A stretch of DNA of 64,000 nucleotides from Thalassospira australica (GCF_044790785.1 NZ_CP085258.1:2559689-2623688); one strand, 5' to 3'. Counted from the first letter of the stretch, positions 4,306 through 62,590 are shown. Notes: a model not told the origin generated them from the letters alone. Translations and numbers: made by a program.

Positions 4306-7300
4306 TTGAAAGGTCAGACGTTGCAGAAGCGCACAAACACGTTTGCGCCGGGGACAGAACGGCAGGGAGAACCGCTTACAACGCCGCAGTCGAGCATATG
4401 GCTTGACTGGGCCGAAGGCGACGATTGCGCAAATTACAATATTTGCAGCGTCATCCGGTTCGAGGGCGATCTTGATATTGCAGCCCTTTACAAGGCAATT
4501 GTCCAAACCGATCAGGAAAATGACGCCCTGCGTCTGCGCTTTGCATCAGAAGGCGGCAATCCGTTTCAGACCTTTGCCGATGACTGCCGCGAAACCGATT
4601 TCAGCGTCATCGATTTAAGTTTTACCGATGATCCGGTTCTGATCGCCAATAACGAAGTCGAGGAAATCCGCCGCCGTCCGCTTGACCCGGAAAACGGATA
4701 TCATTGCCGCCATCGCCTGTTGCAACTGGGCACGGGACGTTACTGGTGGGTTCGGGTCTATCATCATCTGGTCTGTGACGGATATGCCGGGCATTTGATG
4801 GCGCAACGCGCGGCGGAAATTTACAGCGCACTTAAAACCGGTACTGCCGTCCCCGAAAGCACATTCGGGTCCTATGGCGACTTTATCGCTGCTGACGCGA
4901 CCTATCCCGAAACACCGGCCTATCAACGTGACCTTGTCTATTGGCAGGAACGCCTGCAAAACGATCACGCGATCACGCGGTTTTCATCCGACAAACCATC
5001 GGGAAAGCTGATTCAGGCCCGGCTGGAACAGACGCTGGATGGTCAGGAACTTGCCAGACTGACCCAGACGGCCAAAGCCTGCGGCACATCGCCCACCGCG
5101 ATTGTCATGGCCACATATTTCATCCTGCTGGGTCAGGTCACCCATATCAAACACCCGACCGTCACCATGCCGCTTCTAAACCGGATGGGACGGGTGGAAC
5201 GCCATACGCCGGGGGCATTTTCCTATATCGTGCCCTTCGATGCCGATTTGGGAAAACACTCACGTTTTTCGGAATTGGCCCGCGATATCTTTGCCCGGGC
5301 GCGTCGCGATGTCCGGCATATGCGCCTTGGCGCGCCGCGCATGCGTGCGGCAAGGCTGGGTGCCAGGGGCCTGTCGGGCGGCGGTGCCTTTTTCAACAGT
5401 CTGGACGGGGCAGAACCCTTATCCTTTACCGGGATCGATACGCGCCGGGTCAATATCTATAACGGGCCGGTCACCGACCTTGGCCTGATCTATATGATGC
5501 AGGCCATAAGCCCGGACAGGCAGGAAGCCGAAATCATCTGGCAATATGATACCGCTTGTCACGACGTTAAATCCGTTACCCGCATCGCCGACCGTTTCCG
5601 TCATTTCCTGTCCCGTGCACTGGACGACCCGGAACAGGAAATTGCGACGATTGCCGCACCGCCATTGGACGAGCTTGCCGTTATCCGCAAACTTGAAACC
5701 GGCGCGGCATTCACAAGACCGGTTCCCGAACGACTCATTCCTGACCGAATTCAGCACGCCATATCATCACGCCCCGGCGATATCGCGCTGATCACCGATG
5801 ATGGCCACGAAGTCACCTTTGCAACGCTGGGCCACATGGCCAATGCCGTTGCGCATCACCTGCGCCAAAGCGGGATTGCAGCGGGTGACTTTGTCGGCAT
5901 GAATGTCTCGCCGAGCGCGCAGCAAATTGCCGCTGTGATCGGCGTCCTGAAATGCGGGGCAGTCTGCGTGCAGCTCGACCCGTTGCAGCCCGTCGCACGC
6001 AACGCGTCGATGACACGTCATCTTGATTGCCGACTTGTTCTGAGTGACAACACCGACGCATGGCGCGAGATCGGCAACACCACCATCACGGTGAAGGATA
6101 TCAACGCCGTGCCGGGCATTGACGGCAGAACCGTCTTGGAAGATGTCCGTGCCGATATTTGCGGTGACGATATTGCCTTTGTCTTCCATACGTCGGGTTC
6201 AACCGGGCAACCAAAACCGGTTCCCGTTCATCACCAATCCCTTGCCGACAAGATCGACGTCGCCATTGCGCTATTCGGCATCGGATCACATGAAAACGGC
6301 AATCCTGAAACTATAGGACTGTTCCCATCGCTCGGATTTGATCCGTGGATGCATCAATTCTGTGTCGGGTTGATCTGTGGCCATCGTATGTGGCTGATGA
6401 CCCATGCGATACTCAGCGACGGGCATAAATTCTGGAACGGTGTAGCGCGACACCATGTCACCCACCTTATGTCGGTGCCATCATTTTATGAAAGTGTGAT
6501 TGATGCCATTCCGGCAGATGGCAATTTCAAATTGCGCCGAATGATCATTGGCGGCGAGGTCCTGCAACCAACACTTTCCCGGCGGCTTTATTCCGTTTTC
6601 GAGTCTGCCGATATCTGGAACTGCTATGGCCCGACCGAAGCCACAATCCATGCCGCTACCCATCTGATCCCAAGGGACATCAAAACCAAAAACATCCCGC
6701 TTGGCTGCGTCGACAGGGGGGCATTTGTCCGGATACTTGATGAGGACGGAAAACGGGTGCCGCTTGGTGTTCCGGGCGAGATTTACCTCGGCGGGATCGG
6801 GCTTAATCGCGGCTATATCAATATGCCCGCAGTAACCGCTGAAAAGTTTATCAAAGACCCGACTGGCGAGACCGGTGAAACCTTTTATCGCAGTGGCGAT
6901 CTGGTTTCCTGGGGCGAAGACGGGCTGCTTTATTATCATGGGCGCACGGACGAGCAGGTCAAAATCCGCGGGCAACGTATTGAAATCGGGGAAATCGAAT
7001 ACCAGCTTTCGCGTGTTTCCGGCGTTGGACGGGCTGCCGTATCGTATGTCAAAACCAATCATGGCGGCGAACTGATCGGTTATCTTCTATCCAACGGAAA
7101 CCCTTCGTCGCGGCCCGACATTGGCACCGTGCGTGGCGAACTGGCGCACCACCTGTCCGACGCAGCGGTTCCGACCCGCCTTGAATGGGCAGAAACGCTT
7201 CCACTGCTGCCGTCGGGCAAAATCGACCGTAAAGCACTTGCTGAATTTGCCGCACTCCGCGACAGCAAGCAACCTGTTGCCCAAGCCACCAGCCCGCAAC

Positions 7301-10300
7301 CAGCGGTCCGTAAACCCGATCAGATGCGCATCCTTCAACTGGCAGATAAAATTGCCAAAATCTGGATGGATTTGATCGAAACCGACGAAATTGAATTTGA
7401 CACCAACCTGTTTGAAGCCGGTGCCCATTCATTGCTGGTGCCACGTGCCCAGTTTGCCCTGTCAAAACTTGCCGGTCGCAATATCGCGTCGGTCGAAATA
7501 TTCAATCATCCGACCATCAATTCCTTTGCCCGTCACCTTTGTGCCGATGACCAAGCCCCCCCCGAAACCGTACAGGCCGACCCAGTAAAGTCCCAACGCA
7601 ATGTGTCTGAGAATCACGACATTGCGATTATCGGCATGGCGATGCGCCTGCCCGGTGCGAATGATCCCGACGCCTTCTGGTCAATGCTTGAAAACGGGAT
7701 CAATCAGATAAAGGATGTCGATATTTCGCGGCTAAGCGCAATGGGCGGCGATCCATCGGCGCTCGAAGACGCCGATTTCGTCGCACGTCACGGGATTCTC
7801 GACGATATCGATATGTTCGATCCCGCCCCGTTTGCCATGACTGCGGGCGAAGTCATCGAAACCGATCCCCAACAACGCCTGCTGCTTGAAGTCGCCCTTG
7901 GCGCGATGGAAGACGGGTCTTGTGATCCGGCGCGCGACGGCCCTGTCGGTGCCTATGTTGGCGTCGGTTTCCCGACCTATCTGGTCGACAGCCTGCGCGA
8001 CAGCCTGCGCGACCGCCCCGATGCGATCCGGTATGGCGTAACAATCGGCAATGACAAGGACTTCGCCGCCACACGGCTTGCCTACAAGCTGAACCTGACC
8101 GGCCCGGCCATCGCATCCTCGACCGCATGCTCGACCGGTCTTGTCAATATTGCGCTTGCCGTAAATGCATTGCGGTCCGGCCAATGCCGTGTCGCCCTTG
8201 CCGGTGGTGCCTCCCTTGGGATCAGCCCGGCTGGCGGATATTATTTCACGCAGGGCGGCATCGGATCACGAAGCGGCGTCTGCCGCCCGTTCGACAGCAA
8301 GGCAGACGGCGTTGTCGGCGGCAGCGGTGCGGCCATTATTCTTCTGAAACGTCTTGATGATGCCATTGCCGACAGGGATACCATTCATGCGATCATCAAA
8401 GGTGTCGGTATGAGTAATGACGGCTCTGCAAAAGCCGCCTTTACCGCCCCCAGTGTCGATGGTCAGGCAAAAGCCATCCAGACGGCCCTTGACGACGCCC
8501 AAATCGATCCATCCACCATCCGCTTTGTCGAAGGCCACGGCACCGCAACAGCCCTTGGCGACCCGATAGAGATCGCCGCACTGAACAAGGTTTATGCAAA
8601 GGCCGATGCAAGGCCAACGCATCCGATCTGGCTTGGCTCGGTCAAGGGCAATATCGGCCATCTGGACAGTGCCGCCGGAATTGCCGGTCTGATCAAGGCC
8701 GTATTGGCAATCCGCCACCGGGCATTCCCGCCGACCTGCCATTTCAATCAACCGAACGAAAACCTTGGTCTGGATCAGGGACCTTTTCGAATAAACAATA
8801 CCGTTCAACCATTGTCGAATAATGATGATGAACCGCTGCGCGCGGGCATCAGCAGCTTCGGGGTTGGCGGCACCAATGCGCATGTGATTATCGAGGAGGC
8901 CCCCCGTTTCGATGGACCGGCATCACGCCAGACACAAAACGATATTCCCCATATCCTACCGTTCTCGGCGGCAAGCGAAACCGCCTTGCAGAAACTTCTG
9001 ACCAACACCGCAAGCTGGCTTGACCGCCACGGATCAGGCATGGCGATATCCGATGTGGCCAACAGCTTGTCGTGCCGCCGCGCCTATCGTTTCAGGGCCG
9101 CCATCGTTGCCACCGACATCAACGCTGCGATTTCCTCCCTGACAAATCCGAAATCGCCCGCCCATCACCAATCCGTTGCCAGACGCAACACTCCTTCCAT
9201 CACCTTCCTGTTCCCCGGTCAGGGATCGCAACGACCGGGCATGGCTAAAGATCTTTGTGCCGCCGATCACGCATCAGCAGAACGGATACGCAATGCCTGC
9301 CTGCATGTGGCACAAACCGGTGGCCCCGATGATCTGTTTGACTTGCTGACCGTGCCTGATGAAAGCCCGGCAACCGCAAACCGCATGGCACGCACCGAAA
9401 TAGCCCAGCCCGCCCTGTTCATTTATGAATATGCGCTGGCAAACTGGCTGATCGAAAATGGCATTTCTCCTGCGGCACTGGCCGGGCACAGCATCGGCGA
9501 ATATGTCGCCGCCTGTATTGGCGGGGTTATGTCCTTTGACGATGCGCTTCGCCTTGTGGTGATGCGCGGTCGCCTGATGGGCCAGACCGAACCGGGATCA
9601 ATGTTTGCCCTGTCCATGGCCGAGGCCGAGGTCGGTGATCTTCTGTCGGCCTTTGGCCCCGATCTGTCGATGGCCGCAATCAACGGACCGCGTCAATGCG
9701 TGGTGGCAGGCAGCACCGAATGCATCGACGCACTTGAAGATCATATCACGGCTCAAGGGAAATCCGGTCGTCGGCTTGTGGTTTCCCATGCCTTCCATTC
9801 ACGCATGATGGAACCGGTTCTCGACGAATTCCGCAATACGGTCGCCAAAATCAGGCTGAACGCGCCAACCCTTCCGATCCAGTCCAACCTGACCGGTAAC
9901 TGGCTGACACCCGAAGACGCCACAAGCCCCGATTACTGGGTTCAACATCTGCGCAATGCGGTGCGCTTTGCCGATAATATCAAGGGACTTATCGCCGAAA
10001 TGCCCGAAACGATCATGGTCGAATGCGGTTTTGGCAACACGGCAAGCCGCCTTGCCATCGTCAACGGTACCCCGACGGGAAACAGCATGGCCCTGCAACC
10101 TGCCCCCGATGCCGCCCGAAAAACAGATGCCGTCATCACCGGCTCAAATGCACTGGCCGGAACGATTGCCAGACTTTGGGTCATGGGCACGTCGCCCGAT
10201 TGGGACAAGGTCAACCAATCCCATGATGCCCGCCGCATTCCATTGCCGACCTATGCCTTTGATCGACGCCGGTTCTGGCCGGACAAGGGAACCACCACAA

Positions 10301-10728
10301 CATCCGACCTGCAATCTTTCGCAGCCCCTGCCACATCGGCAGAAGTCACATCGCCACCGGCACAGAATGCACAGAATGCACAGAATGCACAGAATGAACC
10401 AAACGCAAACATGCACCGGCAGGCCACCATTCTGGACGTCTGGCGCAATATGTTTGGCGATCCGACCATCGGTCCCGATGATGACTTCTTTGAACTTGGC
10501 GGGGACTCCTTATTCGCAGTGCGGATCGCAACACGGCTTTCCGAAATCCTGGCCGCCGAAATTCCGGCTGCCGTAATGTTTGAAGGCCGCACGGCTTCGG
10601 GTGTTGCCAACCTGCTTGCATCCTTTGATACAAACAGCACGCCGACCAATCCCCAGCCAGCGCCAGCGACAACAGCAAAACCAACTGCAACAGCCCCCCT
10701 TCCATCACGCGAACAGGGAGTGCTGTAA
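4306..10728 (+). CDS. hybrid NRPS-PKS, modules 1-2: C(starter-like)-A-T-KS-AT-T
   Basis: C domain HHLVCDGYA (~4761-4790). A domain cores FHTSGSTGQPKPV (~6190), NCYGPTEAT, GEIYLGGIGLNRGY, YRSGDL, GRTDEQVKIRGQRIE, PSGKIDRKAL. PCP FEAGAHSLL (~7420). KS DTACSTGLV (~8120), EGHGTATALGDP, GNIGHLDSAAG. AT GHSIGEYVAA (~9483) with HAFH motif, indicating malonyl-CoA. C-terminal carrier FFELGGDSLFAVRIATRL (~10495). Annotated start is TTG at 4306; TTG at 4321 is also possible. The stop overlaps the gene 2 ATG (TAATG). Confidence 0.9.
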   Translation: MKGQTLQKRTNTFAPGTERQGEPLTTPQSSIWLDWAEGDDCANYNICSVIRFEGDLDIAALYKAIVQTDQENDALRLRFASEGGNPFQTFADDCRETDFSVIDLSFTDDPVLIANNEVEEIRRRPLDPENGYHCRHRLLQLGTGRYWWVRVYHHLVCDGYAGHLMAQRAAEIYSALKTGTAVPESTFGSYGDFIAADATYPETPAYQRDLVYWQERLQNDHAITRFSSDKPSGKLIQARLEQTLDGQELARLTQTAKACGTSPTAIVMATYFILLGQVTHIKHPTVTMPLLNRMGRVERHTPGAFSYIVPFDADLGKHSRFSELARDIFARARRDVRHMRLGAPRMRAARLGARGLSGGGAFFNSLDGAEPLSFTGIDTRRVNIYNGPVTDLGLIYMMQAISPDRQEAEIIWQYDTACHDVKSVTRIADRFRHFLSRALDDPEQEIATIAAPPLDELAVIRKLETGAAFTRPVPERLIPDRIQHAISSRPGDIALITDDGHEVTFATLGHMANAVAHHLRQSGIAAGDFVGMNVSPSAQQIAAVIGVLKCGAVCVQLDPLQPVARNASMTRHLDCRLVLSDNTDAWREIGNTTITVKDINAVPGIDGRTVLEDVRADICGDDIAFVFHTSGSTGQPKPVPVHHQSLADKIDVAIALFGIGSHENGNPETIGLFPSLGFDPWMHQFCVGLICGHRMWLMTHAILSDGHKFWNGVARHHVTHLMSVPSFYESVIDAIPADGNFKLRRMIIGGEVLQPTLSRRLYSVFESADIWNCYGPTEATIHAATHLIPRDIKTKNIPLGCVDRGAFVRILDEDGKRVPLGVPGEIYLGGIGLNRGYINMPAVTAEKFIKDPTGETGETFYRSGDLVSWGEDGLLYYHGRTDEQVKIRGQRIEIGEIEYQLSRVSGVGRAAVSYVKTNHGGELIGYLLSNGNPSSRPDIGTVRGELAHHLSDAAVPTRLEWAETLPLLPSGKIDRKALAEFAALRDSKQPVAQATSPQPAVRKPDQMRILQLADKIAKIWMDLIETDEIEFDTNLFEAGAHSLLVPRAQFALSKLAGRNIASVEIFNHPTINSFARHLCADDQAPPETVQADPVKSQRNVSENHDIAIIGMAMRLPGANDPDAFWSMLENGINQIKDVDISRLSAMGGDPSALEDADFVARHGILDDIDMFDPAPFAMTAGEVIETDPQQRLLLEVALGAMEDGSCDPARDGPVGAYVGVGFPTYLVDSLRDSLRDRPDAIRYGVTIGNDKDFAATRLAYKLNLTGPAIASSTACSTGLVNIALAVNALRSGQCRVALAGGASLGISPAGGYYFTQGGIGSRSGVCRPFDSKADGVVGGSGAAIILLKRLDDAIADRDTIHAIIKGVGMSNDGSAKAAFTAPSVDGQAKAIQTALDDAQIDPSTIRFVEGHGTATALGDPIEIAALNKVYAKADARPTHPIWLGSVKGNIGHLDSAAGIAGLIKAVLAIRHRAFPPTCHFNQPNENLGLDQGPFRINNTVQPLSNNDDEPLRAGISSFGVGGTNAHVIIEEAPRFDGPASRQTQNDIPHILPFSAASETALQKLLTNTASWLDRHGSGMAISDVANSLSCRRAYRFRAAIVATDINAAISSLTNPKSPAHHQSVARRNTPSITFLFPGQGSQRPGMAKDLCAADHASAERIRNACLHVAQTGGPDDLFDLLTVPDESPATANRMARTEIAQPALFIYEYALANWLIENGISPAALAGHSIGEYVAACIGGVMSFDDALRLVVMRGRLMGQTEPGSMFALSMAEAEVGDLLSAFGPDLSMAAINGPRQCVVAGSTECIDALEDHITAQGKSGRRLVVSHAFHSRMMEPVLDEFRNTVAKIRLNAPTLPIQSNLTGNWLTPEDATSPDYWVQHLRNAVRFADNIKGLIAEMPETIMVECGFGNTASRLAIVNGTPTGNSMALQPAPDAARKTDAVITGSNALAGTIARLWVMGTSPDWDKVNQSHDARRIPLPTYAFDRRRFWPDKGTTTTSDLQSFAAPATSAEVTSPPAQNAQNAQNAQNEPNANMHRQATILDVWRNMFGDPTIGPDDDFFELGGDSLFAVRIATRLSEILAAEIPAAVMFEGRTASGVANLLASFDTNSTPTNPQPAPATTAKPTATAPLPSREQGVL
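10361..10396 (+). repeat. perfect 4x tandem 9-bp repeat (cacagaatg) encoding (AQN)4 in the AT-to-carrier linker of gene 1
   Basis: Counted directly: four identical 9-mers at 10361-69, 10370-78, 10379-87 and 10388-96. In-frame, low-complexity linker. Confidence 0.9.
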
Positions 10729-13700
10729 TGAATACCGATCAGCTGTTTCGCCGCACGCAAACCGCACGCACCCTGCTTGATAAACTTCGTCAGCGCGACA
10801 TTGCGCTAAGCCTGCATGCCAACGGGCACGATCTTTGTTTTGATGCCCCGACCGGTGCGTTTGACGATGCCCTGAAATCCGAAACCCGTGACCTGAAGGC
10901 TGAAATCATCGGCCTGCTGCGCGCACCCTCCGAACCAGACACCAAGGGTTCCAGCGCCGGTCCGATCCTCAAATCCTTCCCGGCCCATCCCGCCATCGAA
11001 GGACAATGGATTGCACGGCGCGACCAGCCGACAAGTGCGAATTACCATATCGTCACGGGCTTTTCCCTTCCCGAAGGAACCGGTTTCAGTGCGGTCCGCG
11101 ATGCCATCGCCACCATTGTCAAGCGCCATGATGCCCTCAGATCGACCTTTGTCGAACAGGATGGGCAACTGATCCAGCGCGTGCATGCCTACATGCCTGT
11201 AAGCGTGCGCAAGATCGAAACCACCCGTGAAATTCGTCATGATCTTTTTGATCTCGCCACCGGTCCTTTGGCCCGGTTTGGCTATGTCGGACATGACGAT
11301 GGACAAGTCCCGCAACTGGCCATGGCAATCGATCATCTGTGCTTTGATGGTCAATCGGTCATGTTGCTGCAAAAAGAGCTTCTTGCCATTCTTGCCGGAA
11401 ATCCCCCCGGAAACATTCCCGACATCGAAAAACTTGTGCGCAACGCGCATTACAATTTGGATCGGGAACGCGGCGAAATCGCTCGGAAATTCTGGTCGTC
11501 ACGAACCGATAAGTTGTTATCTGTCGGACTGCCTGACGATCCGGCAACAGACAGCAATGGCGACGGCAAACGCTTTTTGATCGAACTGACGGGGCAAGAC
11601 GCCGAAGCCGTTGCAAAGCTTGCCAGCCATACCCGCAAAACGACCCAGACCACACTCTGGGCAGCACTCACCATCGCAGTGATCGCACGGCACAAGGAAA
11701 ACGCCACAGCCATCATCGGGCTGCCTTTTGCCGGCCGCAGGGACAGGGAAACCATGCAGTCTATGGGCTGCTTTGTGAATCTCCTGCCTGTCGCGATCAA
11801 ACCCGATATGACAGGCACCCTTGAAAACCTGACCAGACAGGTCGGGCACGAGGTCCTGTCCATACTCGATGTTCAGGATTACCCCCTGTCGCGTCTGGTT
11901 CACGATCTGACACAGGCGGCACAGGGCCCGATAGGCCAGCCATTCGATGCCGTTCATGTAATGGAAACCTCCGACAGCCCGTTCGTGATCGAAGATCTCG
12001 ACTTCGGCGCGGGTAAATTCCCCCTGATGATCGGCATGATGAAAAACGGCGCGGAAACATTTTTGGCTGTCGAATATCAAAGTAACATCTATGGCAACGC
12101 ATGGGCTGAACGCTTTGCAAAACGTTTCCTGACCTTTGCACGTGCGCTTGCCAAAAACCCGGACATGCCGCTTGGCCTTGTTGATCTGCTGCCCGAAGAC
12201 GAACGCGACCACCTGTCCATCACGCTGAACGATACTGCATCGGATTACCCGCACGACTGCGGTCTTGGTGAATTACTCGCCCGGCAAATCGCCAAGCCAG
12301 CCAATGCGGACAAGGTCGCCCTGCAAGATCGTGATCGAAAAATCACTTATCGCATGTTGGGCCAACGGGTTGCCGCCATTTCTGCCGGGCTTGATGCTCT
12401 TGATGTTGCGCCCGGTTCGATTGTTGCTCTGGCCGCCGATCGTTCTCTTGATGCGATTATCACCCTTCTGGGCATTGCATGGCATGGGGCGGCCTATCTG
12501 CCGATTGATAAATCGCTGCCCGGCGATGCTATTGCCACCCTGATGGCCGAATGCGGTGCCGGTATTTTGCTGTGTGACGACGCCGAATTTGAACGCCTGT
12601 CGGGCCTGTCTGGTCGCGTTCGTATTGCCCGTCTTCCCGACACCAACGCAACATCCGATGCGACCTTTACCAGACGATCCGGCGATGATCTGGCTTATGT
12701 CATGTTTACCTCCGGCTCCACCGGCGCCCCCAAGGGGGTGCTGATCCCCAACCGGGCAGTGGCACGTCTGGTTGTCAATAACCGGGCGCTTGCGTTTGAT
12801 GACACCGATGTCATGGCACAGGCCGCATCGCTTGGCTTTGATGCCGCAACCCTTGAAATCTGGGCCCCGCTTCTGAATGGTGGCAGACTGGTTCTGATCG
12901 ATAACGAAACCCTGTTTGATCCAGAATCCCTTCACAATGCCCTTAAAGATGGCGGTGTCACCACCATGTGGCTGACCGCAAGCCTGTTTAACCGGATCGC
13001 CGATGATGCCCCGGGTTGCTTTGCCCCGCTCAAAAGACTGCTTTCCGGGGGCGAGGTGCTCAGTCCAGCTCACCTGCAAAAAGTCATGGCCGCCTGCCCG
13101 GACCTGGCCCTGATCAACGGCTACGGCCCGACGGAAAATACGACCTTTACCTGTATCCACCCGATCACGGCTCAAGACGTCCAATCGGCAAACATCCCGA
13201 TTGGACGACCGATTGGCAATACCCGCACCTATATTCTTGATACCGGCGGTCAACCGGTTCCAACCGGGGTCTGGGGCGAACTTTACGCCGCAGGCGACGG
13301 GCTGGCACTGGGATATTCCGGCGCGCCCGAACGCACCGCCAAGGCATTCGTCACGTTCGATCATTTGCCCGAAACGCGCCTTTACAAAACCGGCGACCGT
13401 GCGCGCTGGCGGGCGGATGGTGTAATTGAATTTGGCGGCCGCGGTGACGGGCAGGTCAAAATTCGCGGGCACCGGATTGAAACCGCCGCCATTGAAAAAC
13501 GCCTTGCCGAAATCGATGGCATTCGCAATGCCTGCGTGATTGCCGCCGACTCTGGTGCCGATGCCTTCCTTGGGGCGGCCATCGCCGCCGATCAGGATAA
13601 CAGCACCATCTGGATGCAGGTCCTTGGCCGCAATCTGCCCGATTACATGATCCCCGAACGGTTTCTCGTGCTTGATCATCTGCCAGTCAATGTGAATGGC

Positions 13701-47918: not shown

Positions 47919-47920
47919 TC

Positions 47921-54078: not shown

Positions 54079-54710
54079 TCCCGATCCGCCGCCTGATCGC
54101 CCCCCTCGCAACCGCCGCCCTGCTGGCCGCAGGCATGACCGGCACCGCACGGGCGGATAATATTCCGGCCCCCTCCACCATCAATCAGGATCAATATCTC
54201 GGCGGTTCCTTCACCATGGACCGCCATCTTGACGGCTTTGAAAAACCGCTCACCTCGAACGGTGATTTCGTTCTGTCCCCGACAAAGGGTCTGGTCTGGC
54301 GCACGTTGCAACCCTTCCCCGGCACCACAATCCTTGATGATCACGGCATCACCCGGATCGATGATCAGGGCAACCGCGATGAGTTGGCCCGCGGTGATCA
54401 GTTCCGCCAGTTTGTCGAACTGATTTCGGCCGTTCTTGCCGGGAACTGGCAACCGCTTGAACAGCGTTTTGACATCGCCAAAGGCACGACCGAAAGTGAC
54501 GCATGGCAAGTCAGCCTGACGCCCAAAGACGGCAGCACCATCCAAAGCCAGATCACCAAAATCACCGCCACCGGCACAGATTTTGTCGAAAGCGTTCGAC
54601 TGGAAAAACCGACCGGCGATCATGATGCCATCACCCTTTCCGATCAGGCATTGCAAACCCTGCCCCTGCCGCCCGAATTTGCCGCTCTTCTGACCGGCGC
54701 GGCTCAGTAA
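54075..54710 (+). CDS. LolA-like outer-membrane lipoprotein carrier protein
   Basis: Signal peptide (LIAPLATAALLAAGMTGTARA). About 190 aa periplasmic beta-barrel-type protein at the LolA-like position of APE clusters. TTGA coupling. Confidence 0.5.
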   Translation: MIPIRRLIAPLATAALLAAGMTGTARADNIPAPSTINQDQYLGGSFTMDRHLDGFEKPLTSNGDFVLSPTKGLVWRTLQPFPGTTILDDHGITRIDDQGNRDELARGDQFRQFVELISAVLAGNWQPLEQRFDIAKGTTESDAWQVSLTPKDGSTIQSQITKITATGTDFVESVRLEKPTGDHDAITLSDQALQTLPLPPEFAALLTGAAQ

Positions 54711-57031
54711 TGGCGTTGCGCGCAACCCTCTGGGCCATGTGCCTGATCGCGATGGCGGTTTTTACCGCGTGGCAATTGCGCGGCGGTCATACCGGGATTG
54801 ATGCCGATATCCTGTCCCTGATCGGGCAGGAAAATGCCGACCAAAACGGGCCGCAAAGTGACATCGCCACCGTCCGCCATCTGCTGGCAAATGATGGTCG
54901 GCAGGTGATCTTCATGCTTTCGCACGCCAACCGCGACACGCTTGAAACCGCCGCCACTGATTTCGCGGACCGGATCGCCGCCCTTGATGGCACGCAGGGC
55001 ATCACCCTGCCCGGTCACAACAATGATCGCTTCACCGATCTGATGGCGCTTTATAGCCCGCACGCCAACAGCCTGCTATCCCCGTCTGATCGCGAAAAAC
55101 TGGCAGATGGCGACGCCGAAACCCTTTATCGCCGCGCCATCCAGAACCTCTATTCCCCGGCAACAACGCTCAGCAGCCAGTCGCTGAAACAGGACCCCTT
55201 TGCCCTTCTGCCCGCCTTCCTGTCCGACCTTGGTGCCAAGCTTGGCACCGGCAATGACGTGATCACCCGCGACGGGCAATTTTACCTGCCGGTCATGACA
55301 AGCCTGTCGCCCGATCTGCGAAGCTCTGGCAACGATCAGAAATGGGTCGCAGATGCCAATACCGCCCTGCAATCCGTCACCGATGCCACACCCGGCCTGA
55401 GCACCGCCAAAACCGGCCAGATATTCTTTGCCGTGGCAGAAGCCACCCGCGCGCAATCCGATGTGCAACGCATCGCCATCATCGCGACCATCGGCGTCCT
55501 TGTGATGATCGGGCTGGTGTTCTACTCCCCCATCCCGCTTCTGGCCGCCCTTCTGGTCGTCGGCAGCGGCCTTTTGGCAGGCCTTGCCGCCGTGGTCGCG
55601 ATCTTTCCGGCGATCCATGCGATTGCGCTGGTGTTTGGCGCGACCATGATCGGCATTTCGGTTGATTATGCCCTGCATTACCTTGTGCTGCGCTCCAATC
55701 CCGGATCACCCACGGACCGGCTACGTAAAATCAGACCGGGGCTAAGCCTTGGCCTTCTGACATCCGTGATCGGCTTTGGCGCGCTATCGCTCAGCCCCAC
55801 CCAATTGCTCTCCCAGATCGCGGTTTATTCCGTCGCCGGTCTGGTGGCGGCCTATTCTTCGGTGCTGTTCCTGTTGCCCCTGATCCCGGCCCGCAATGTC
55901 CGGGCGTCCTCGCCGATCCGCAAACTGCATGATGGCTTGCAAGTCGCCCTTGGCAAAACATTTGCCCCGATCCGCGTTCGCCTGATCGCAAGTGCCGCCA
56001 TCATCGTCACCCTTGCCCTTGCGGCCTTCCTGATCCCCGGCAATAACGATATCCGCCAGTTCGGTCACGGCAATGACGCCCTGATAGCGGACGCCGGTAA
56101 AATCGCCGATATCCTTGGCCTTGGCGGCAGCCCCGTCTTCCTCCGCATTGACGGGGATGATCCCCAAGCCCGCCTTGAAACCGGCGAAGCAGTACGCGAT
56201 GCCCTGACACCACTGATCGCCGATAACCGCCTTGGCGGCATGATCGGCCTGTCCGATCTGATCCCCTCGATTACCCGGCAAACCGAAAACCGCGATCTGG
56301 TCACAACCGCGCTTTATGATCGCTTTGGCACGGCCCTGTCCGATCAGTTGCCGGTCACTGTCACCGCACCGGACATGGGTGCCGATTACCTTGTCCCCGA
56401 TGACACCGCGGCAAGGACATTGCCCGAAATCGCCCGCCTGCATTCCAGCAGATCGGACATCATCCGGCTTCGCAACGCCACCGATATCGATGCCATCCGC
56501 AACGCCCTTGCCGATATCCAAAACGTCACCCTGATCAACCCACCCATCGCGATCAGCAACCAGTTTGCCGCCTATCGCCTGTGGGCATGGATTGCCTTGG
56601 GGGGCGCACTTTGTGTTGCCGCCATCCTCGCGGTTTTACGCTACGGGCTTCAAACCGGCACTTGCGTTTTTGCCGCCCCCGCCGGGGCGATCCTGTTTGC
56701 CGTGATGGGCGGTTATGCCTTTGGTATTACCCAAAGCTTCTTTACCACCATGGCGCTGTTTCTGGTCTTTGCCATCGGGGCGGATTATGTGCTGTTTCTG
56801 GCCGAAAGCCGCAACGCAACCCATGATGACGACACGCGCCTTGCGGTGTTGCTGTCGCTGATCAGCAGTGTGCTGGCCTTTGGTCTTCTCGCCACATCAT
56901 CCGTGCCGCTGGTGCGCGATATCGGATCGGTGATTGCAATCGGCCTGATCGGGGCATGGTTCCTTGCCTTCTGGATGACCGCACCAACACATTATAACGC
57001 GCAAACCCGACATAAAAGGGAACAAGAATAG
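54710..57031 (+). CDS. MMPL/RND-type exporter (predicted lipid exporter)
   Basis: 773 aa with two 6-TM bundles separated by a large periplasmic domain. TAATG coupling. Confidence 0.7.
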   Translation: MALRATLWAMCLIAMAVFTAWQLRGGHTGIDADILSLIGQENADQNGPQSDIATVRHLLANDGRQVIFMLSHANRDTLETAATDFADRIAALDGTQGITLPGHNNDRFTDLMALYSPHANSLLSPSDREKLADGDAETLYRRAIQNLYSPATTLSSQSLKQDPFALLPAFLSDLGAKLGTGNDVITRDGQFYLPVMTSLSPDLRSSGNDQKWVADANTALQSVTDATPGLSTAKTGQIFFAVAEATRAQSDVQRIAIIATIGVLVMIGLVFYSPIPLLAALLVVGSGLLAGLAAVVAIFPAIHAIALVFGATMIGISVDYALHYLVLRSNPGSPTDRLRKIRPGLSLGLLTSVIGFGALSLSPTQLLSQIAVYSVAGLVAAYSSVLFLLPLIPARNVRASSPIRKLHDGLQVALGKTFAPIRVRLIASAAIIVTLALAAFLIPGNNDIRQFGHGNDALIADAGKIADILGLGGSPVFLRIDGDDPQARLETGEAVRDALTPLIADNRLGGMIGLSDLIPSITRQTENRDLVTTALYDRFGTALSDQLPVTVTAPDMGADYLVPDDTAARTLPEIARLHSSRSDIIRLRNATDIDAIRNALADIQNVTLINPPIAISNQFAAYRLWAWIALGGALCVAAILAVLRYGLQTGTCVFAAPAGAILFAVMGGYAFGITQSFFTTMALFLVFAIGADYVLFLAESRNATHDDDTRLAVLLSLISSVLAFGLLATSSVPLVRDIGSVIAIGLIGAWFLAFWMTAPTHYNAQTRHKREQE

Positions 57032-58269
57032 TGAGACCCGATTGCGATATCGCCATCATCGGTGCCGGGCCTGCCGGATCGGTCATTGCCAAATTCCTGC
57101 ATGATGCCGGCATGGCTGTTACCGTGCTCGAAGCCGAAACTTTCCCGCGCTTCGTGATCGGCGAAAGCCTGCTGCCCAATTGCATGAATGTGCTTGAACG
57201 TGCCGGGCTTCTGGATGCGGTCGCCGATGCCGGGTTCCAGTTCAAAAACGGTGCCGTCTTCGAATGCGGCCCCCAATATATGTCGATTGATTTCCGCGAA
57301 AATTTCGAACCGTCCGATTGCTGGGGCACCACGTTTCAGGTGAAGCGGGCCCGCTTTGACCAGATTCTGGCAACCGAAACCGCCCGCGCCGGGGTCGATA
57401 TCCGCTTTGGCCATCGCGTCACATCGGCACATCTTTCCGATGGCGATTGCCGCCTTGGCTTCACCGATGAAAACGGCAATCCCGGCGAACTCCGCGCCGG
57501 GTTCGTGGTCGATGCCAGCGGCTATGGCCGCGTCCTTCCCCGGATGCTCGGCCTTGCCCGCCCCGGTAAGTCGATTGAACGCCGCGCACTTTTTACCCAC
57601 ATGCGCGATCACATCATCGATCCCGGCTATGACCGCGAAAAAATCCTGATCACGGTGCATCCGACCCGTCATGAAATCTGGTACTGGCTGATCCCGTTTT
57701 CCGATGGCACCGCATCCATCGGCGCGATCTATCCCGATAATGATCCGGCCTTTGCCGGCATGTCTGATCAGGACATTTTCAATCAGTTGATCAACGACAC
57801 ACGTCTCGGAAGCCTGCTTTCCAATGCCGAACCGATCCGCGACCTTAATTCCATCGCCGGATATAGCGCACAATCGGAAAAACTTTTTGGCGATGGTTAT
57901 GTGCTGCTTGGCAATTCGGCGGGCTTCCTTGATCCGGTCTTTTCATCGGGTGTCACCATCGCCATGCATTCCGCCGAACTGGCCGCCAAGGCCTTGATCG
58001 CGCGTCATAATGGCAAGTCTGTTGACTGGAACCTGGATTTCGCCGCCCCGCTGTCAAAGGGGGTCGATACGTTCCGATCCTATGTCGATGCATGGTATGA
58101 TGGACGGTTACAGACGATTATTTTCAATCAGCCCGATGACGATTCACAACTGAAACGTATGGTCGTATCGATCCTTGCAGGTTATGCATGGAATATGGAA
58201 AACCCGCTGGTCGCCAAAACCGAACGCTATCTTGAGATGTTGCACGATCTATGCGCTCCGTCGTCGTAA
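57031..58269 (+). CDS. flavin-dependent halogenase (tryptophan-halogenase-like)
   Basis: GxGxxG (IAIIGAGPAGS). Halogenase signature WxWxIP (EIWYWLIPF). GTG start overlapping the upstream stop (TAGTG). Confidence 0.65.
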   Translation: MRPDCDIAIIGAGPAGSVIAKFLHDAGMAVTVLEAETFPRFVIGESLLPNCMNVLERAGLLDAVADAGFQFKNGAVFECGPQYMSIDFRENFEPSDCWGTTFQVKRARFDQILATETARAGVDIRFGHRVTSAHLSDGDCRLGFTDENGNPGELRAGFVVDASGYGRVLPRMLGLARPGKSIERRALFTHMRDHIIDPGYDREKILITVHPTRHEIWYWLIPFSDGTASIGAIYPDNDPAFAGMSDQDIFNQLINDTRLGSLLSNAEPIRDLNSIAGYSAQSEKLFGDGYVLLGNSAGFLDPVFSSGVTIAMHSAELAAKALIARHNGKSVDWNLDFAAPLSKGVDTFRSYVDAWYDGRLQTIIFNQPDDDSQLKRMVVSILAGYAWNMENPLVAKTERYLEMLHDLCAPSS

Positions 58270-58916
58270 AAACCCTTGTCGCTGGCATGCTTGCCACAGG
58301 TCTGAGCGCCTGTGAAACAATGAACATGCCCGATCTGTCGATGCCCGACTTTTCCCTGCCCGATGTCTTTACATCGGCCCCGGCACAGACCGTGATGCTT
58401 GACGAGGGCTATGAATTCACCCTGCCCGAACAGCCATGGACCAATGATGACGCCATCGACGTCACCCAGCAGGTCACGGCAAACTGGCAAACCGCCAACA
58501 GCAGCGAAACCGGAACCGGCACCTTTCAGGCCCGCCTGTCCCTTGAACGCGATCACGCCCGCATCGTCATGATCGATGATCTGGGCCGTCGCGCGATTGA
58601 TATCGACTGGACGCCCGATGCCCTGTCGGTCCAAACCGCAGACTGGCTGCCCGCAACGCTTGATGCCAAACGCATGCTGGCCGATATCGTCATGGTCTAT
58701 TGGCCGCTCGATATCGTGCGCGATGCCCTGCCGGGCAATATGTCGATCCGCGAAACCATGGGCGAAAGGATGCTTCGCATGGATAACAGTGGCCGCGCCT
58801 ATGCCCGGATTGAACGCCCGATCCGCGATGTCTGGCAGGGTGTGGCGAAGCTTCGCAATGAACGGTTCGGCTATGCCATCACGATCCAATCGAAACGGAC
58901 GGAACCGTCATCATGA
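58251..58916 (+). CDS. lipoprotein (DUF3261-like position), hypothetical
   Basis: Lipobox LSAC. ATG 58251 overlaps the halogenase 3' end by 19 nt. Confidence 0.5.
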   Translation: MRSVVVKTLVAGMLATGLSACETMNMPDLSMPDFSLPDVFTSAPAQTVMLDEGYEFTLPEQPWTNDDAIDVTQQVTANWQTANSSETGTGTFQARLSLERDHARIVMIDDLGRRAIDIDWTPDALSVQTADWLPATLDAKRMLADIVMVYWPLDIVRDALPGNMSIRETMGERMLRMDNSGRAYARIERPIRDVWQGVAKLRNERFGYAITIQSKRTEPSS

Positions 58917-60142
58917 CGCCGGGTTCGCTCTATCTTTCCGCCCTTGGCATCGTATCGGCCCTTGGCAGCGGGATCGATGAAAGCCGCGCGACCCTGTTTG
59001 GCAATCGCCCGGCAGACATGATCGCGCGAGATGGCTTCCTGCCCGATCGCACCACGATCCTTGGCACTGTCGCGCATGATCCCGAACCACTGCCAGATCC
59101 CCTTGCCCGCCACGATACCCGCAACAACCGCCTGCTTTGGGCCGCAACCCGGCAGATCGAAACCGATATCACCAATCTGATCGCCGATATCGGCCGCGAC
59201 CGGATCGGTGTCATCATGGGCACCAGCACATCGGGCATCGAAGAAGGCACAAGCGATTACGAAGCCGCCCTTGATGGCGGGGCCTTTCCCGAAACGTTTG
59301 TGTATAGCCATCAGGAAATCGGATCACCCGCCGATTTCCTGCGCGATGCCTTTGATCTTGGCGGACCGTCTTACGCAATTTCGACGGCATGTTCATCAAG
59401 TGCCAAGGCCTTCGCCGCCGGGGCGCGCCTGATCAATGCCGGGCTGTGCGATGCGGTTCTGGTTGGCGGCGCCGATAGCCTCTGCCGCCTGACCGTGCGC
59501 GGTTTTGATGCCCTGCAATCGGTTTCAAACGGCATCTGCAACCCCATGAGCATCAATCGCGACGGCATCAATATCGGCGAAGGGGCCGCGATCTTCATCC
59601 TGCGCCGCGATGCGCATCCGGGTGCGGGCGCGATTGAACTTTTGGGGGTCGGTGAAAGCTCCGACGCCCATCATCCCAACGCCCCGCATCCCGATGGCCG
59701 GGGGGCCGCCATGGCAATGCAAAACGCGCTGGCAAACGCCAGCCTCACCCCCGCCGACATCGCCTATATCAATCTGCACGGCACCGCGACCCCGCTTAAT
59801 GACGGCATGGAGGCACGTGCGGTCTGCGATGTTCTCGGCGCCAACGTCCCGGCAAGCTCCACCAAACCGATGACCGGTCATACGCTGGGTGCTGCGGGCG
59901 CCATCGAAGCCGCGATGCTGTGGCTATCGCTTTGCGATGCCGCCAATGGTGCGCCCCTGCCGCGTCATATCTGGGACGGTGCATCTGATCCCGAAATTCC
60001 CGATATCAATCTGGTGACCAAGCCGGGCACCAGATTGCCACCCGCGGATCGGTTGGCAATGATGAGCAACTCGTTTGCCTTTGGCGGCAGCAACGTCTCG
60101 GTCATTCTTGGCCGGGGCTGGAACCGGGGGGACCGCGCATGA
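58913..60142 (+). CDS. beta-ketoacyl-ACP synthase (FabB/F-like)
   Basis: Active-site Cys AISTACSSSAKAF; His NLHGTATPLND and GHTLGAAGA. Confidence 0.85.
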   Translation: MTPGSLYLSALGIVSALGSGIDESRATLFGNRPADMIARDGFLPDRTTILGTVAHDPEPLPDPLARHDTRNNRLLWAATRQIETDITNLIADIGRDRIGVIMGTSTSGIEEGTSDYEAALDGGAFPETFVYSHQEIGSPADFLRDAFDLGGPSYAISTACSSSAKAFAAGARLINAGLCDAVLVGGADSLCRLTVRGFDALQSVSNGICNPMSINRDGINIGEGAAIFILRRDAHPGAGAIELLGVGESSDAHHPNAPHPDGRGAAMAMQNALANASLTPADIAYINLHGTATPLNDGMEARAVCDVLGANVPASSTKPMTGHTLGAAGAIEAAMLWLSLCDAANGAPLPRHIWDGASDPEIPDINLVTKPGTRLPPADRLAMMSNSFAFGGSNVSVILGRGWNRGDRA

Positions 60143-60627
60143 ATGCGTCTGTAAAACCCGCCTTCCCACCCGTCGAAACACTGGTGCCCCATGCCGCACC
60201 CATGCTTCTGATCGACCGCGTTCTGAATGCCGACGCCGAAAGCCTGACGGCAGAGGTCCACATCACCAAGGACAGCCTGTTCTTCACCCCCACGCACGGC
60301 GTCCCCGCCTATGTCGGGATCGAATATATCGCACAGTCGGTCGCCGCCTATAGCGGCTGGCGCGCCCAATCGGCGGCCCCCGGCACAGCACCCAAAATCG
60401 GTTATCTGCTCGGCACGCGCAAAATGACCATGGCGTGCGATGGCTTTGCCGATGGCGATGTGCTTGTCGTCCATGTGAAAAACATTTTCGAAGACGGCGA
60501 AATGGGTGTGTTTGACGGCGAGGTTCGCAAAGGTGACGAAACCCTTGTGACCGCCCGCATCAATGTCTATCAGCCAGACGACACCGCAGAAACCCCAACC
60601 AGCAACCAAGAAACGACAAAGCCATGA
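60139..60627 (+). CDS. hotdog 3-hydroxyacyl-ACP dehydratase (APE-type)
   Basis: 162 aa, PMLLIDRV motif typical of FabA/Z-like/thioester dehydrases. ATGA coupling. Confidence 0.6.
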   Translation: MNASVKPAFPPVETLVPHAAPMLLIDRVLNADAESLTAEVHITKDSLFFTPTHGVPAYVGIEYIAQSVAAYSGWRAQSAAPGTAPKIGYLLGTRKMTMACDGFADGDVLVVHVKNIFEDGEMGVFDGEVRKGDETLVTARINVYQPDDTAETPTSNQETTKP

Positions 60628-61349
60628 CAGAAACCATTCTGGTAACAGGTGCCAGCAAGGGGATCGGTGCCGCCACCGCGCGCCGTCTTGCAAGGGACGG
60701 TTTTGATATCATCGTCCATTATCATTCCGATCAAACCGGTGCCGAAGCCGTCCGTGATGACATCATTGCCCTTGGCCGCAATGCCCGCCTGATCCGGTTC
60801 GATATCGCTGACCGCGACGCGACGCGCACCGCAATCGAGGCCGACATTGCCGATCATGGCGCGCCCTATGGTGTGATCCTCAATGCCGGGCTGACCCGCG
60901 ATGGACCGTTTCCCGCCCTTGAAGACGACGATTGGGATCGGGTTCTGCACACCAATCTGGATGGCTTTTACAATGTGATCAAACCGCTGATCATGCCGAT
61001 CATTCAACGGCGCAAGGGCGGGCGGATCGTTGCGCTCACCTCCATCGCCGGGATCGCTGGCAATCGCGGGCAGGTCAATTATGCGGCATCAAAGGCCGGG
61101 ATCATCGGGGCGGTCAAATCACTCGCCCTTGAACTCGCCAAACGCAAAATCACCGTCAATGCCGTCGCCCCCGGCGTGATCGAAACCCAGATGACCGGCG
61201 ACCTGCCCGCGGACGAGGTCAAGGCGATGATCCCGATGCGCCGTTACGGCACAACGGATGAAGTCGCGGGCACCATCGCATTTCTGTGCAGCCCCGATGC
61301 GTCCTACATCACGCGCCAGGTCATCAGTGTGAATGGGGGCATGCTATGA
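60624..61349 (+). CDS. fabG: 3-oxoacyl-ACP reductase (SDR)
   Basis: TGASKGIGAATARRLA, catalytic YAASKAG, NAVAPGVIET. Confidence 0.85.
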   Translation: MTETILVTGASKGIGAATARRLARDGFDIIVHYHSDQTGAEAVRDDIIALGRNARLIRFDIADRDATRTAIEADIADHGAPYGVILNAGLTRDGPFPALEDDDWDRVLHTNLDGFYNVIKPLIMPIIQRRKGGRIVALTSIAGIAGNRGQVNYAASKAGIIGAVKSLALELAKRKITVNAVAPGVIETQMTGDLPADEVKAMIPMRRYGTTDEVAGTIAFLCSPDASYITRQVISVNGGML

Positions 61350-62590
61350 GCAACACCACCTCCACCCGCCGCGTGGTCGTCACCGGCATGGCGGGCATCA
61401 CCGCCCTTGGTGATAATTGGGAAACCATTTCATCGCGCATGGCGGCGGGTGAAACCGGCATCCGGCGCATGGATGACTGGGATGGCAAATATGATCTGCG
61501 CACCCGCCTTGCCGCCCCGGTGCAGGATTTCACGCTCAAGGGCAAATTCAGCCGCAAACAGCTCCGCAGCATGGGCCGTGTTGCCCAGATGTCGGTCGAT
61601 GCCACCGACAAGGCATTGGAAATGGCGGGTCTGCGTGACGATACCGCGATCCTGCAGGGTGGGCGTCTTGGCATTGCCTATGGCTCATCCTTCGGAAGCA
61701 CCCCGCCCGTTCTCGGTTTCACCCGCCTGATGGAACATGGCGACAGCAACGCCATCACCGCCACCAGCTACATCCAGATGATGAGCCACACCGCTGCCGT
61801 CAATATCGGCGTGCTCTATGGCATTTCCGGGCGCATCATCCCGACCTCGACCGCCTGCACATCGGGCAGCATGGGGATCGGATATGCGTATGAGGCAATC
61901 AAATTCGGCATGCAGGATCTGATGATCGCCGGCGGGGCGGAGGAACTCTGCCCCACCATGGTCGCCGTATTCGATACCCTGTTTGCCACCAGTACCAGTA
62001 ACGACGCCCCGGAACTCTCCCCGCGTCCCTATGATGCAAGGCGCGATGGTCTGGTAATCGGCGAAGGGGCCGGAACGCTTATTCTGGAAGAATATGAACA
62101 CGCCAAGGCCCGCGGGGCCAAGATTTACGGCGAAATCGTCGGCTTCGCCAGCAATTCCGACGGCGCGCACATCACCCAACCCGCAGCGGACAAAATGGAA
62201 GTCGCCCTTCGCCAGTCGCTTGAAAGTGCCGGGCTGTCGCCATCCGATATCGATATCGTCAACGGCCACGGCACCGCCACCGATCATGGCGACCTTGCCG
62301 AAAGCAGGGCGACCCGTGCCGTCTTTGACCGCGCCATTCCGATCCACACGCTCAAGGGCCATTTCGGCCATAGCCTCGGCGCATGTGGTGCCATCGAGGC
62401 ATGGCTTGGCCTTGAAATGATGCGCGAAGGCAAATTTGTCGCCACCGCCAATCTTGAACAGGTCGATCCCGATTGCGCCGAACTTGATTACATCTTTGGC
62501 GACGCCAGAAACCTTTCGGCCGAACATATGATGAGCAACAATTTCGCCTTTGGCGGTATCAACACGTCCCTGATCTTCCGGCAAATCTAG
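61346..62590 (+). CDS. beta-ketoacyl-ACP synthase II-like (second KS of operon)
   Basis: Cys TSTACTSGSMG; His NGHGTATDHGD and GHSLGACGA. ATG 61346 overlaps the fabG stop. Confidence 0.85.
   Translation: MSNTTSTRRVVVTGMAGITALGDNWETISSRMAAGETGIRRMDDWDGKYDLRTRLAAPVQDFTLKGKFSRKQLRSMGRVAQMSVDATDKALEMAGLRDDTAILQGGRLGIAYGSSFGSTPPVLGFTRLMEHGDSNAITATSYIQMMSHTAAVNIGVLYGISGRIIPTSTACTSGSMGIGYAYEAIKFGMQDLMIAGGAEELCPTMVAVFDTLFATSTSNDAPELSPRPYDARRDGLVIGEGAGTLILEEYEHAKARGAKIYGEIVGFASNSDGAHITQPAADKMEVALRQSLESAGLSPSDIDIVNGHGTATDHGDLAESRATRAVFDRAIPIHTLKGHFGHSLGACGAIEAWLGLEMMREGKFVATANLEQVDPDCAELDYIFGDARNLSAEHMMSNNFAFGGINTSLIFRQI

Follow-up and report, generated by a model that had tools for sequence, protein, structure and literature searches.

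Two families of biosynthetic gene clusters (BGCs) described so far are closely related to the genes found in a stretch of 64,000 nucleotides of the genome of Thalassospira australica (GCF_044790785.1, NZ_CP085258.1:2559689-2623688; hereafter the window, i.e., the whole stretch analysed, with positions counted from its first letter). The first is the thalassospiramide (ttc) cluster, whose reference is represented by ttcA-D of Thalassospira sp. CNJ-328 (Zhang, Tang, Huan, Ross, Moore; bioRxiv 10.1101/560987). The second is the aryl-polyene (APE) family, represented by the clusters of Escherichia coli CFT073 and Xenorhabdus doucetiae (PMC8253772). Both the ttc cluster and the APE family are already known; in the window they lie one beside the other, and they are very probably two separate biosynthetic units, neither of which feeds the other, whose adjacency would represent a lineage-specific arrangement of the genome. 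An original prediction concerning the region 4306-62590 had described it as a lipopeptide-type assembly line and an APE-type operon with shared accessory genes between them, and had offered two explanations: two independent neighbouring BGCs, or an APE machinery supplying the N-acyl group of the peptide.

The thalassospiramide and aryl-polyene genes of the window

Since Thalassospira makes thalassospiramides, the window was compared with the published ttc cluster. The periplasmic binding protein encoded at 38207-39487, used as an anchor, retrieved five loci sharing 76-94% identity, all of them from Thalassospira; of the two thalassospiramide-producing genera (Thalassospira and Tistrella), the first accounts for all the close loci. 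Judging from their sequences, the nonribosomal peptide synthetase-polyketide synthase (NRPS-PKS) genes at 4306-29767 and the phosphopantetheinyl transferase (PPTase) gene at 29780-30541 are the orthologs of the published ttcA-D. The ttcA ortholog (4306..10728, + strand), assigned through Pfam, catalytic residues and primers, encodes modules 1a and 1b (Cstarter-A-T-KS-AT-T); the ttcB ortholog (10728..26252, +), assigned through Pfam and a motif scan, encodes modules 2-5 and then the C domain of module 6 (dock-C-A-T-C-A-T-KS-(DH)-KR-T-T-C-A-T-C); the ttcC ortholog (26252..29767, +) encodes an A domain with an embedded methyltransferase, followed by T and TE domains (Pfam; methyltransferase motif LEIGCASG at amino acids (aa) 230-237). 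The published modules are 1a (C-A-T), 1b (KS-AT-T without KR), 2, 3, the trans-AT module 4, in which DH and KR are accompanied by tandem T domains, 5, and 6, which carries the sole methyltransferase (MT) and the TE (bioRxiv 10.1101/560987); the order of the domains in the window, as revealed by Pfam and motif scans, is identical to that of the published TtcA, TtcB and TtcC modules.

The neighbouring genes point in the same direction. Those listed in Table 2 of the published supplementary information (SI), that is, MMSDH (499 aa), a LysR regulator (295 aa), TtcD (253 aa), a DUF697 protein (186 aa), a prohibitin, DUF697 fragments, a 260-aa hypothetical protein and an MFS transporter (bioRxiv 10.1101/560987), are found in the same order in the window, where the sizes of 499, 295, 253, 186 and 260 aa agree when the first ATG, and not an upstream TTG, is taken as the start codon. 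Moreover, the published mutation sites TtcA-H154, G631 and K972 and TtcB-K2045 fall exactly on catalytic residues of the window proteins, namely the second histidine of HHxxxDG (H154), the glycine of motif A3 (G631) and the lysines of motif A10 (K972 and TtcB-K2045), and for the sites S1041, C1274, S1728 and TtcC-G234 the correspondence is shifted by one residue. The published primers also map onto the window (20/20, 20/20, 40/41, 38/40, 37/41 and 32/33 matching positions, with a site identity of 88-100%), and the primers used to check ttcD match 20/20 on both sides. Among the homolog clusters of TtcA, the closest shows 88% identity; since the names of these homologs do not include "TtcA", the orthology was established from the tables, residues and primers of the paper.

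The two loci are alike in having a three-gene hybrid NRPS-PKS, a starter C domain, an AT-less PKS module, tandem T domains, an A domain with an embedded MT and a PPTase gene immediately downstream. They differ in the length of TtcB (5174 aa in the window vs. 5186 in CNJ-328) and TtcC (1171 vs. 1174), and in the siderophore-uptake genes ttc -6 to -3, which are absent from the window, where a sigma-54 regulator gene is directly beside that of MMSDH. This set of genes can be regarded as the ttc ortholog of a related strain, and not as CNJ-328 itself.

As for the nature of the assembly line, the label of lipopeptide type given to it in the original prediction has to be corrected: rather than a plain lipopeptide NRPS, it is an NRPS-PKS hybrid comprising two PKS modules, of which one is AT-less. 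The PKS module of the second gene lacks an AT domain; its DH is detected through a weak PS-DH match only (Pfam, E 9e-4), and its tandem T domains are located at about aa 3491 and aa 3584 (motif scan). The KS of this module 4 (window positions 18228-21000) is followed by a KS-AT linker (RhiE-like/CurL-like) and then by no AT, and no free-standing AT gene was found within the 64-kb window, the APE cluster included; the AT of primary metabolism has been proposed to serve (bioRxiv 10.1101/560987). Other peculiarities of these proteins were observed: the first C domain of TtcB (aa ~200-206) has DHLCFDG in place of HHxxxDG, the first histidine being replaced by an aspartate; the KS of module 1b has the motif SSTACST, not DTACSS; and the methyltransferase of TtcC (aa 223-345) interrupts an early part of the A domain, the commoner insertion site being between A8 and A9, with the AMP-binding profile picking up again at its position 151 (aa 424), ahead of the A3 motif at aa 451.

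The region 45041-62590 is recognised, from its gene content, as a canonical APE cluster in the apeA-R gene order of E. coli. The complete APE-type operon that had been placed 16 kb downstream of the assembly line is found at 46111-62590, 16.3 kb past the end of the third gene. Preceded by a gene encoding an ApeA-like small lipoprotein (45707..46108, +; 133 aa), assigned as the first APE gene on the basis of conservation, the lipobox VVAAC and its position, the genes on the + strand encode, in order: ApeC (KS-CLF), ApeD (acyltransferase), the acyl carrier proteins (ACPs) ApeE and ApeF, and the membrane protein ApeG (46111..48749; Pfam Ketoacyl-synt_2 (PF13723), Acyltransferase and twice PP-binding, with a weak IspA-like membrane match); an ApeH-ApeI fusion (adenylating enzyme and dehydratase) and ApeJ, which joins a GT2 glycosyltransferase and a lipid A-type acyltransferase (48746..52119; Pfam AMP-binding, ApeI-like (PF22818), Glycos_transf_2, Lip_A_acyltrans); an aromatic amino-acid ammonia-lyase whose MIO motif, ASG, is found at aa 182 (52013..53674; Pfam Lyase_aromatic, E 1.6e-152); ApeK (4HBT thioesterase), ApeL (LolA-like) and the large membrane protein ApeM (53641..57031; Pfam); a flavin-dependent halogenase (57031..58269; Pfam Trp_halogenase, with the motifs GxGxxG and WxWxIP, the latter as WYWLIP); and ApeN (DUF3261), ApeO (KS), ApeP (DH), ApeQ (KR) and ApeR (KS) (58251..62590; Pfam DUF3261, ketoacyl-synt, ApeP-like (PF22817), adh_short/KR). 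The Pfam matches thus include the whole APE core, i.e., a KS and KS-CLF pair, a second KS, a KR, two FabA/Z-like dehydratases, tandem ACPs and an adenylating enzyme. The set of genes for lipid attachment and export (ApeD, J, K, G, L, M and N) is also present, together with the ApeA lipoprotein; ApeM (773 aa) was assigned by its position, its size and a weak MMPL/RND match (E 0.029). Since the cluster possesses attachment, release and export genes of its own, it has no evident need of a peptide partner.

The order running from an ApeA-like lipoprotein, which in E. coli is encoded by the first gene of the BGC, through KS, DH, KR and KS is shared with the clusters of E. coli CFT073 and X. doucetiae (PMC8253772). 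Unlike these, the window has no ApeB methyltransferase, its ApeH and ApeI are fused, and it harbors in addition the ammonia-lyase, the flavin halogenase and an adjoining dedicated PPTase, E. coli using the orphan AcpT. For the adenylating domain of ApeH the best NCBIfam match is a 4-coumarate-CoA ligase, below the cut-off, and the best matches of the ammonia-lyase are the models of tyrosine (TAL) and histidine (HAL) ammonia-lyases, all below the cut-off as well. This enzyme is probably the source of a cinnamate- or coumarate-type starter. At the position of the usual selectivity switch, which is Ser-His in HAL, His-Leu in TAL and Phe-Leu in phenylalanine ammonia-lyase (PAL), its sequence reads Phe-His (LSRFHGCG, aa ~118-126), and the switch gives no substrate. 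In the biosynthesis of flexirubin, the starter is supplied by a TAL-type enzyme (FlxA), and xanthomonadin has a halogenated aryl head group; the window resembles both, as far as genes can tell, in having an ammonia-lyase-type starter supply and a halogenase. It differs in the score obtained with the FlxA NCBIfam model (304 bits vs. a cut-off of 700) and in the absence of dialkylresorcinol genes. The product is likely to be an ammonia-lyase-derived, possibly halogenated aryl polyene carried on a membrane lipid. A search of the literature for Thalassospira and arylpolyene did not retrieve any paper.

Organization of the two clusters in related genomes

The relationship existing between the two clusters was assessed by comparing 23 related loci (indicated by L and a number), in which the presence or absence of genes was judged beside ttc or APE, with flanks of 10 kb. 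In L002, L004, L005, L013, L014, L017, L018, L019 and L020, with an identity of the anchor protein down to ~52%, the order ttcB/C, ttcD, DUF697, SPFH, DUF697, hypothetical protein, MFS, binding protein, GNAT, binding protein, pyridoxal phosphate (PLP) enzyme, ABC1 and ABC2 is kept wherever the locus reaches; the block from ttc to ABC2 is conserved in all the 15 related loci in which it is covered. ABC1 and ABC2 are two half-size exporters of the cyclic-peptide-export family (40912..44237, +; NCBIfam TIGR01194, 299 and 329 bits, cut-off 286), and they are followed in the window by the gene of a stand-alone type II thioesterase (TEII; 44242..44982, -; Pfam Thioesterase). A look-up of the exact sequence of this TEII, with either of its two possible starts, retrieved no entry. 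TEII accompanies the ttc block in every locus extending far enough; in a divergent lineage, represented by Thalassospira sp. NFXS8 (L023, 10001-10810) and L020 (6815-7546), it does not follow the exporters but is flanked by the SPFH and DUF697 genes, at a distance of two genes from ttcD. The NRPS gene upstream of it in L023 has a called length of 6164 aa; a fusion of ttcA and ttcB, or a different division between them, may account for this.

What lies beyond TEII differs from one lineage to another. In the window and in L002, L005 and L007-L010, there are a second PPTase gene (PPTase-2; 45041..45625, -) and the APE cluster. In T. xianhensis (L001), whose TtcA ortholog is 87% identical, the place is taken by an enolase-like gene, a LysR gene and tartrate dehydrogenase genes; in L011/L012 by AraC, SHMT and serine dehydratase genes; and in L021/L022, the first of which is on the same contig as the ttcB/C genes of L018, by a kinase, a TRAP transporter and hut genes. 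PPTase-2 and APE are absent from all these places. Conversely, in locus L006, from a metagenome-assembled genome, a complete APE operon, the ApeA-like gene and PPTase-2 (48% identity) are surrounded by genes of TetR, TRAP-transporter and amidohydrolase proteins; the APE proteins of L006, the ammonia-lyase included, are 64-97% identical to those of the window, and TEII, exporters and NRPS were not found within 10 kb of APE. Hence, the joint conservation of synteny, which would be expected if the two clusters acted together, is not observed: there are lineages with ttc in which APE is missing beside it, and one locus with APE and no ttc. This segregation assigns TtcD, the exporters and TEII to the ttc unit and PPTase-2 to the APE unit, the boundary between the two falling in the region that separates TEII from PPTase-2. 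The homology between the window and T. xianhensis stops at ~44949, at the 5' end of TEII. The right flank of the window (62.4-64 kb) is unmatched in all the fetched loci, so that the difference from T. xianhensis does not amount to a clean, simple indel of APE. Neither GC content nor skew disclosed a boundary between the clusters, promoter and terminator scans at the junctions did not rise above the shuffled expectation (with the exception of a strong hairpin upstream of ttcD), and a megablast of the region 26-48 kb against plasmids returned a single 100-bp ABC match only.

These data bear directly on the genes of the interval. A TEII, a second PPTase and cyclic-peptide exporters are indeed present (as detected through Pfam, NCBIfam and motifs), just as they had been described, and it might be supposed that TEII, the two PPTases and the ABC exporters form a common accessory set serving both pathways. 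These genes sit between the two clusters, and those of PPTase-2 and TEII are co-directional and separated by just 58 nucleotides (40 if the upstream TTG is the start), so that they may be co-transcribed in this strain. However, TEII and the exporters stay with ttc where APE is absent (TEII being beside ttcD in NFXS8), PPTase-2 stays with APE where ttc, TEII and the exporters are absent, and APE owns both a thioesterase (ApeK) and an export system. In the related loci each gene partitions to one cluster, and the idea of shared accessory genes is quite improbable.

A different possibility is that TEII and the two exporters serve neither cluster, being ordinary chromosome content or belonging to another NRPS located elsewhere. 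About 9 kb of genes without an obvious biosynthetic role separate ttcD from them, and they are not needed for heterologous production. On the other hand, the exporters keep their synteny with ttc at all the levels of divergence sampled, and so does TEII where it is reached, the DNA beyond TEII being variable; moreover, TEII has moved nearer to ttcD in one lineage, and TEII and cyclic-peptide exporters are typical NRPS accessories. We consider this explanation possible but unlikely.

Source of the N-acyl group

The acyl chain of the published product has been studied in CNJ-328 and in a heterologous host. As the N-acyl group of thalassospiramides, C10:1(delta3) predominates, alongside C10, C8 and hydroxy-C10; the inactivation of the starter C domain (C1a-H154A) abolishes every product; and ttc integrated in Pseudomonas putida yields thalassospiramide A and nearly all the wild-type analogs, one known analog only being specific to the wild type, from which the authors concluded that further pathway-specific enzymes are not required (bioRxiv 10.1101/560987). 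Since SI Table 2 covers the genes from -7 to +6, the clone used can be inferred to end in the MFS gene, well before TEII, the exporters and APE. When compared with the window, the homology arms of the capture vector gave 26/49 and 29/50 matches, which is noise. As regards the donor, cis-3-decenoyl-ACP is the product of FabA in the ordinary synthesis of unsaturated fatty acids, which fits an N-acyl donor coming from primary metabolism.

The first gene opens, as had been predicted, with a C domain placed ahead of the first A domain (Condensation, aa 23-452; HHLVCDG at aa 153-159; Pfam, motif scan). When compared with C domains of solved structure, this starter C domain scores 117 bits with RzmA-Cs (7C1H/7C1K, lipoinitiation) and 108 bits with CdaPS1-Cs (4JN3, lipoinitiation), 105 bits with ObiF1 and 94 bits with EntF, both of which accept aryl groups, and 30-50 bits with internal (elongation) C domains. 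By its position and by this ranking of scores, it appears to be closest to the ordinary lipoinitiation kind. In addition, its Gly162 aligns with R148, the chain-length gate of RzmA, whose shortening to Ala or Gly shifts the selectivity to C8-C10; a glycine at the gate position fits acyl chains of C8-C10. The starter C domains of the calcium-dependent antibiotic (CDA) and daptomycin (acyl-ACP) and of the skyllamycin-type cinnamoyl lipopeptides (type II PKS), whose acyl supply is encoded in the cluster itself, take an acyl thioester, as in TtcA (PMC7804268 in part); such a mechanism is what an APE-derived N-acyl group would need. Unlike these systems, ttc would receive its acyl group from primary metabolism, and the NRPS and the adjoining type II system are not inherited together.

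On this basis, it is possible to weigh the second explanation offered originally, according to which the type II machinery of APE would make a (possibly halogenated) aryl-polyene acyl-ACP acting as the N-acyl donor for the starter C domain of TtcA, giving a polyene-capped peptide. In actinomycetes, cinnamoyl or polyene starters made by type II PKSs feed the starter C domain of an NRPS (skyllamycin, WS9326, kitacinnamycin), and this precedent speaks for such a transfer, as do the physical adjacency of the clusters in several Thalassospira, the very presence of a starter C domain, and the fact that, among the solved C domains nearest to it, there are acceptors that depend on an ACP (CdaPS1) and others that depend on an aryl carrier (ObiF1, EntF). 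Nevertheless, the ortholog makes its family of products with plain C8-C10 fatty acids in a host that was given no APE genes; three lineages lack APE beside ttc, and L006 has APE alone; the APE cluster has complete lipid-attachment and export genes of its own; and the gate residue of the pocket suits medium chains. It is thus very improbable that APE supplies the N-acyl group, and the first explanation, that of two independent neighbouring BGCs, is the one that the data favour, since ttc is a published cluster that is self-sufficient in a heterologous host and since the two clusters are separable in the relatives.

According to the reading of two separate units, unit 1 (~3057-45000) is the thalassospiramide locus, in which TtcA-C would act as a non-linear hybrid NRPS-PKS whose carrier domains are primed by TtcD. 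The starter C domain would use a medium-chain fatty acyl thioester of primary metabolism (mainly C10:1(delta3), also C8, C10 and OH-C10) to N-acylate the first amino acid, and the conserved downstream block with the two exporters and TEII would provide export and carrier-domain editing in the native host. Unit 2 (45041-62590) is the APE cluster, divergent from its own small PPTase gene. Here the ammonia-lyase may furnish a cinnamate- or coumarate-type acid, which ApeH would load on ApeE/F; ApeO/C, R, Q, I and P would extend it to a polyene, whose ring the flavin halogenase may halogenate; finally, ApeD/J/K would attach the polyene to a membrane lipid, and ApeG/L/M/N would move it to the outer membrane.

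Some points weigh against this reading. The ttc identity of the genes is one of orthology (~88-97% at the primer sites), not of strain; the right end of the published clone was deduced from SI Table 2, not mapped on the window; and fatty-acyl and aryl-acyl donors are not clearly told apart by the scores of the starter C domain, those obtained with ObiF1 and EntF being only slightly lower. The roles attributed to TEII and to the ABC exporters come from synteny, and both are dispensable in P. putida. Lastly, the two clusters adjoin in a whole Thalassospira subclade (the window, L002, L005 and L007-L010), and in such strains ttc and APE might be co-regulated. One may even imagine that native strains with abutting clusters make minor, membrane-associated thalassospiramides capped by a polyene, a promiscuous TtcA starter C domain accepting a chain, or a short intermediate, bound to ApeE/F. 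If this were true, such congeners would have escaped the published targeted liquid chromatography-mass spectrometry; the chances that they exist seem to be exceedingly small. Far more likely than these congeners is that the natural ttc cluster extends ~15 kb beyond the published one, including TEII and the two cyclic-peptide exporters.

Flanking genes and significance of the arrangement

On the left side of the window, the gene of a sigma-54 Fis-type regulator (1-1275, -; motif WPGNVRELRN) runs off the end and adjoins that of MMSDH (1411-2910, -); in CNJ-328 the two are separated by the genes of a TonB receptor, FhuF and ABC proteins (ttc -6 to -3), which the window lacks. They are followed by the LysR regulator gene, corresponding to ttc -1 (3057..3944, +; 295 aa; Pfam HTH_1 and LysR_substrate; SI Table 2).

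Downstream of ttcC, the ttcD ortholog (29780..30541, -) is predicted to encode an Sfp-type PPTase of 253 aa from the ATG (Pfam ACPS/4PPT_N; primers; SI Table 2). A terminator-like hairpin with a 14-bp stem followed by a run of T (30581-30612, -) is located between the DUF697 gene and ttcD, upstream of the latter; its sequence overlaps the upstream TTG from which the longest possible open reading frame (ORF) of ttcD would start, and this favours the ATG at 30541 (253 aa) as the start. Then come the DUF697/SPFH-prohibitin/DUF697 genes (ttc +1 to +4; 30642..33613, -; Pfam; SI Table 2 order), and in the published work the deletion of ttc +1 to +4 had no effect on production (bioRxiv 10.1101/560987). 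The segment 33701..38197 (+; Pfam, SI Table 2, synteny) encodes a hypothetical membrane protein (ttc +5), for whose ORF (33701-34483) no significant Pfam match was obtained, the MFS transporter (ttc +6), which has an N-terminal extension of ~270 aa, an ABC_sub_bind protein and a GNAT acetyltransferase. The anchor, a periplasmic binding protein of the NMT1_3/TAXI type (38207..39487, -; Pfam), precedes a PLP enzyme resembling diaminopropionate ammonia-lyase (39705..40787, +; Pfam PALP; NCBIfam NF006058, 302.6 bits, cut-off 276). Altogether, ~14 kb (30642-44237) keep a fixed gene order next to ttc in the sampled relatives (L002, L005, L013-L023), down to ~50-60% protein identity; most of these genes have no obvious biosynthetic role.

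At the junction of the two units, PPTase-2 appears to be a short, divergent Sfp-like PPTase of 180-194 aa, recognised through the motifs SISHS...IGIDIE and W..E..K. Its profile matches are weak (HetI; ACPS, E 0.09) and lie below the Pfam thresholds, and a search of the PDB with its sequence matched nothing; in some sources, its homologs are labelled as belonging to the 4'-phosphopantetheinyl transferase family. Its occurrence is almost restricted to Thalassospira, and it invariably adjoins the APE operon, in divergent orientation. As for the gene preceding apeC, an ORF of 170 aa on the opposite strand (45686-46198, -) was first taken as the gene and then rejected on the basis of conservation and stop codons, being 60-80% conserved and interrupted in every relative. 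The + frame 45707-46108 is 84-96% conserved and open in six relatives out of seven, L005 having one stop, and gene callers report a 133-aa gene at this position in the relatives; the ApeA-like protein gave no significant Pfam match. At the other end of the operon, on the opposite strand, there are a RidA-family gene (62639-63049, -) and a 4HBT-fold thioesterase gene (63042-63509, -); for the + strand ORF that overlaps the latter (63036-63542), no family match was found.

The ttc cluster being a pathway already dissected by experiment, and APE clusters the most widespread BGC family of Gram-negative bacteria, the relevance of the arrangement disclosed here is mainly one of correct annotation: it offers an example of how a comparison with relatives can allocate adjoining BGCs, and the genes in between, to the cluster to which they pertain. 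To this, some small additions can be made, i.e., a ttc neighbourhood conserved up to ~45 kb and including a TEII-exporter block outside the published clone, an APE-linked divergent PPTase that standard Pfam thresholds miss, and a corrected gene call upstream of apeC.

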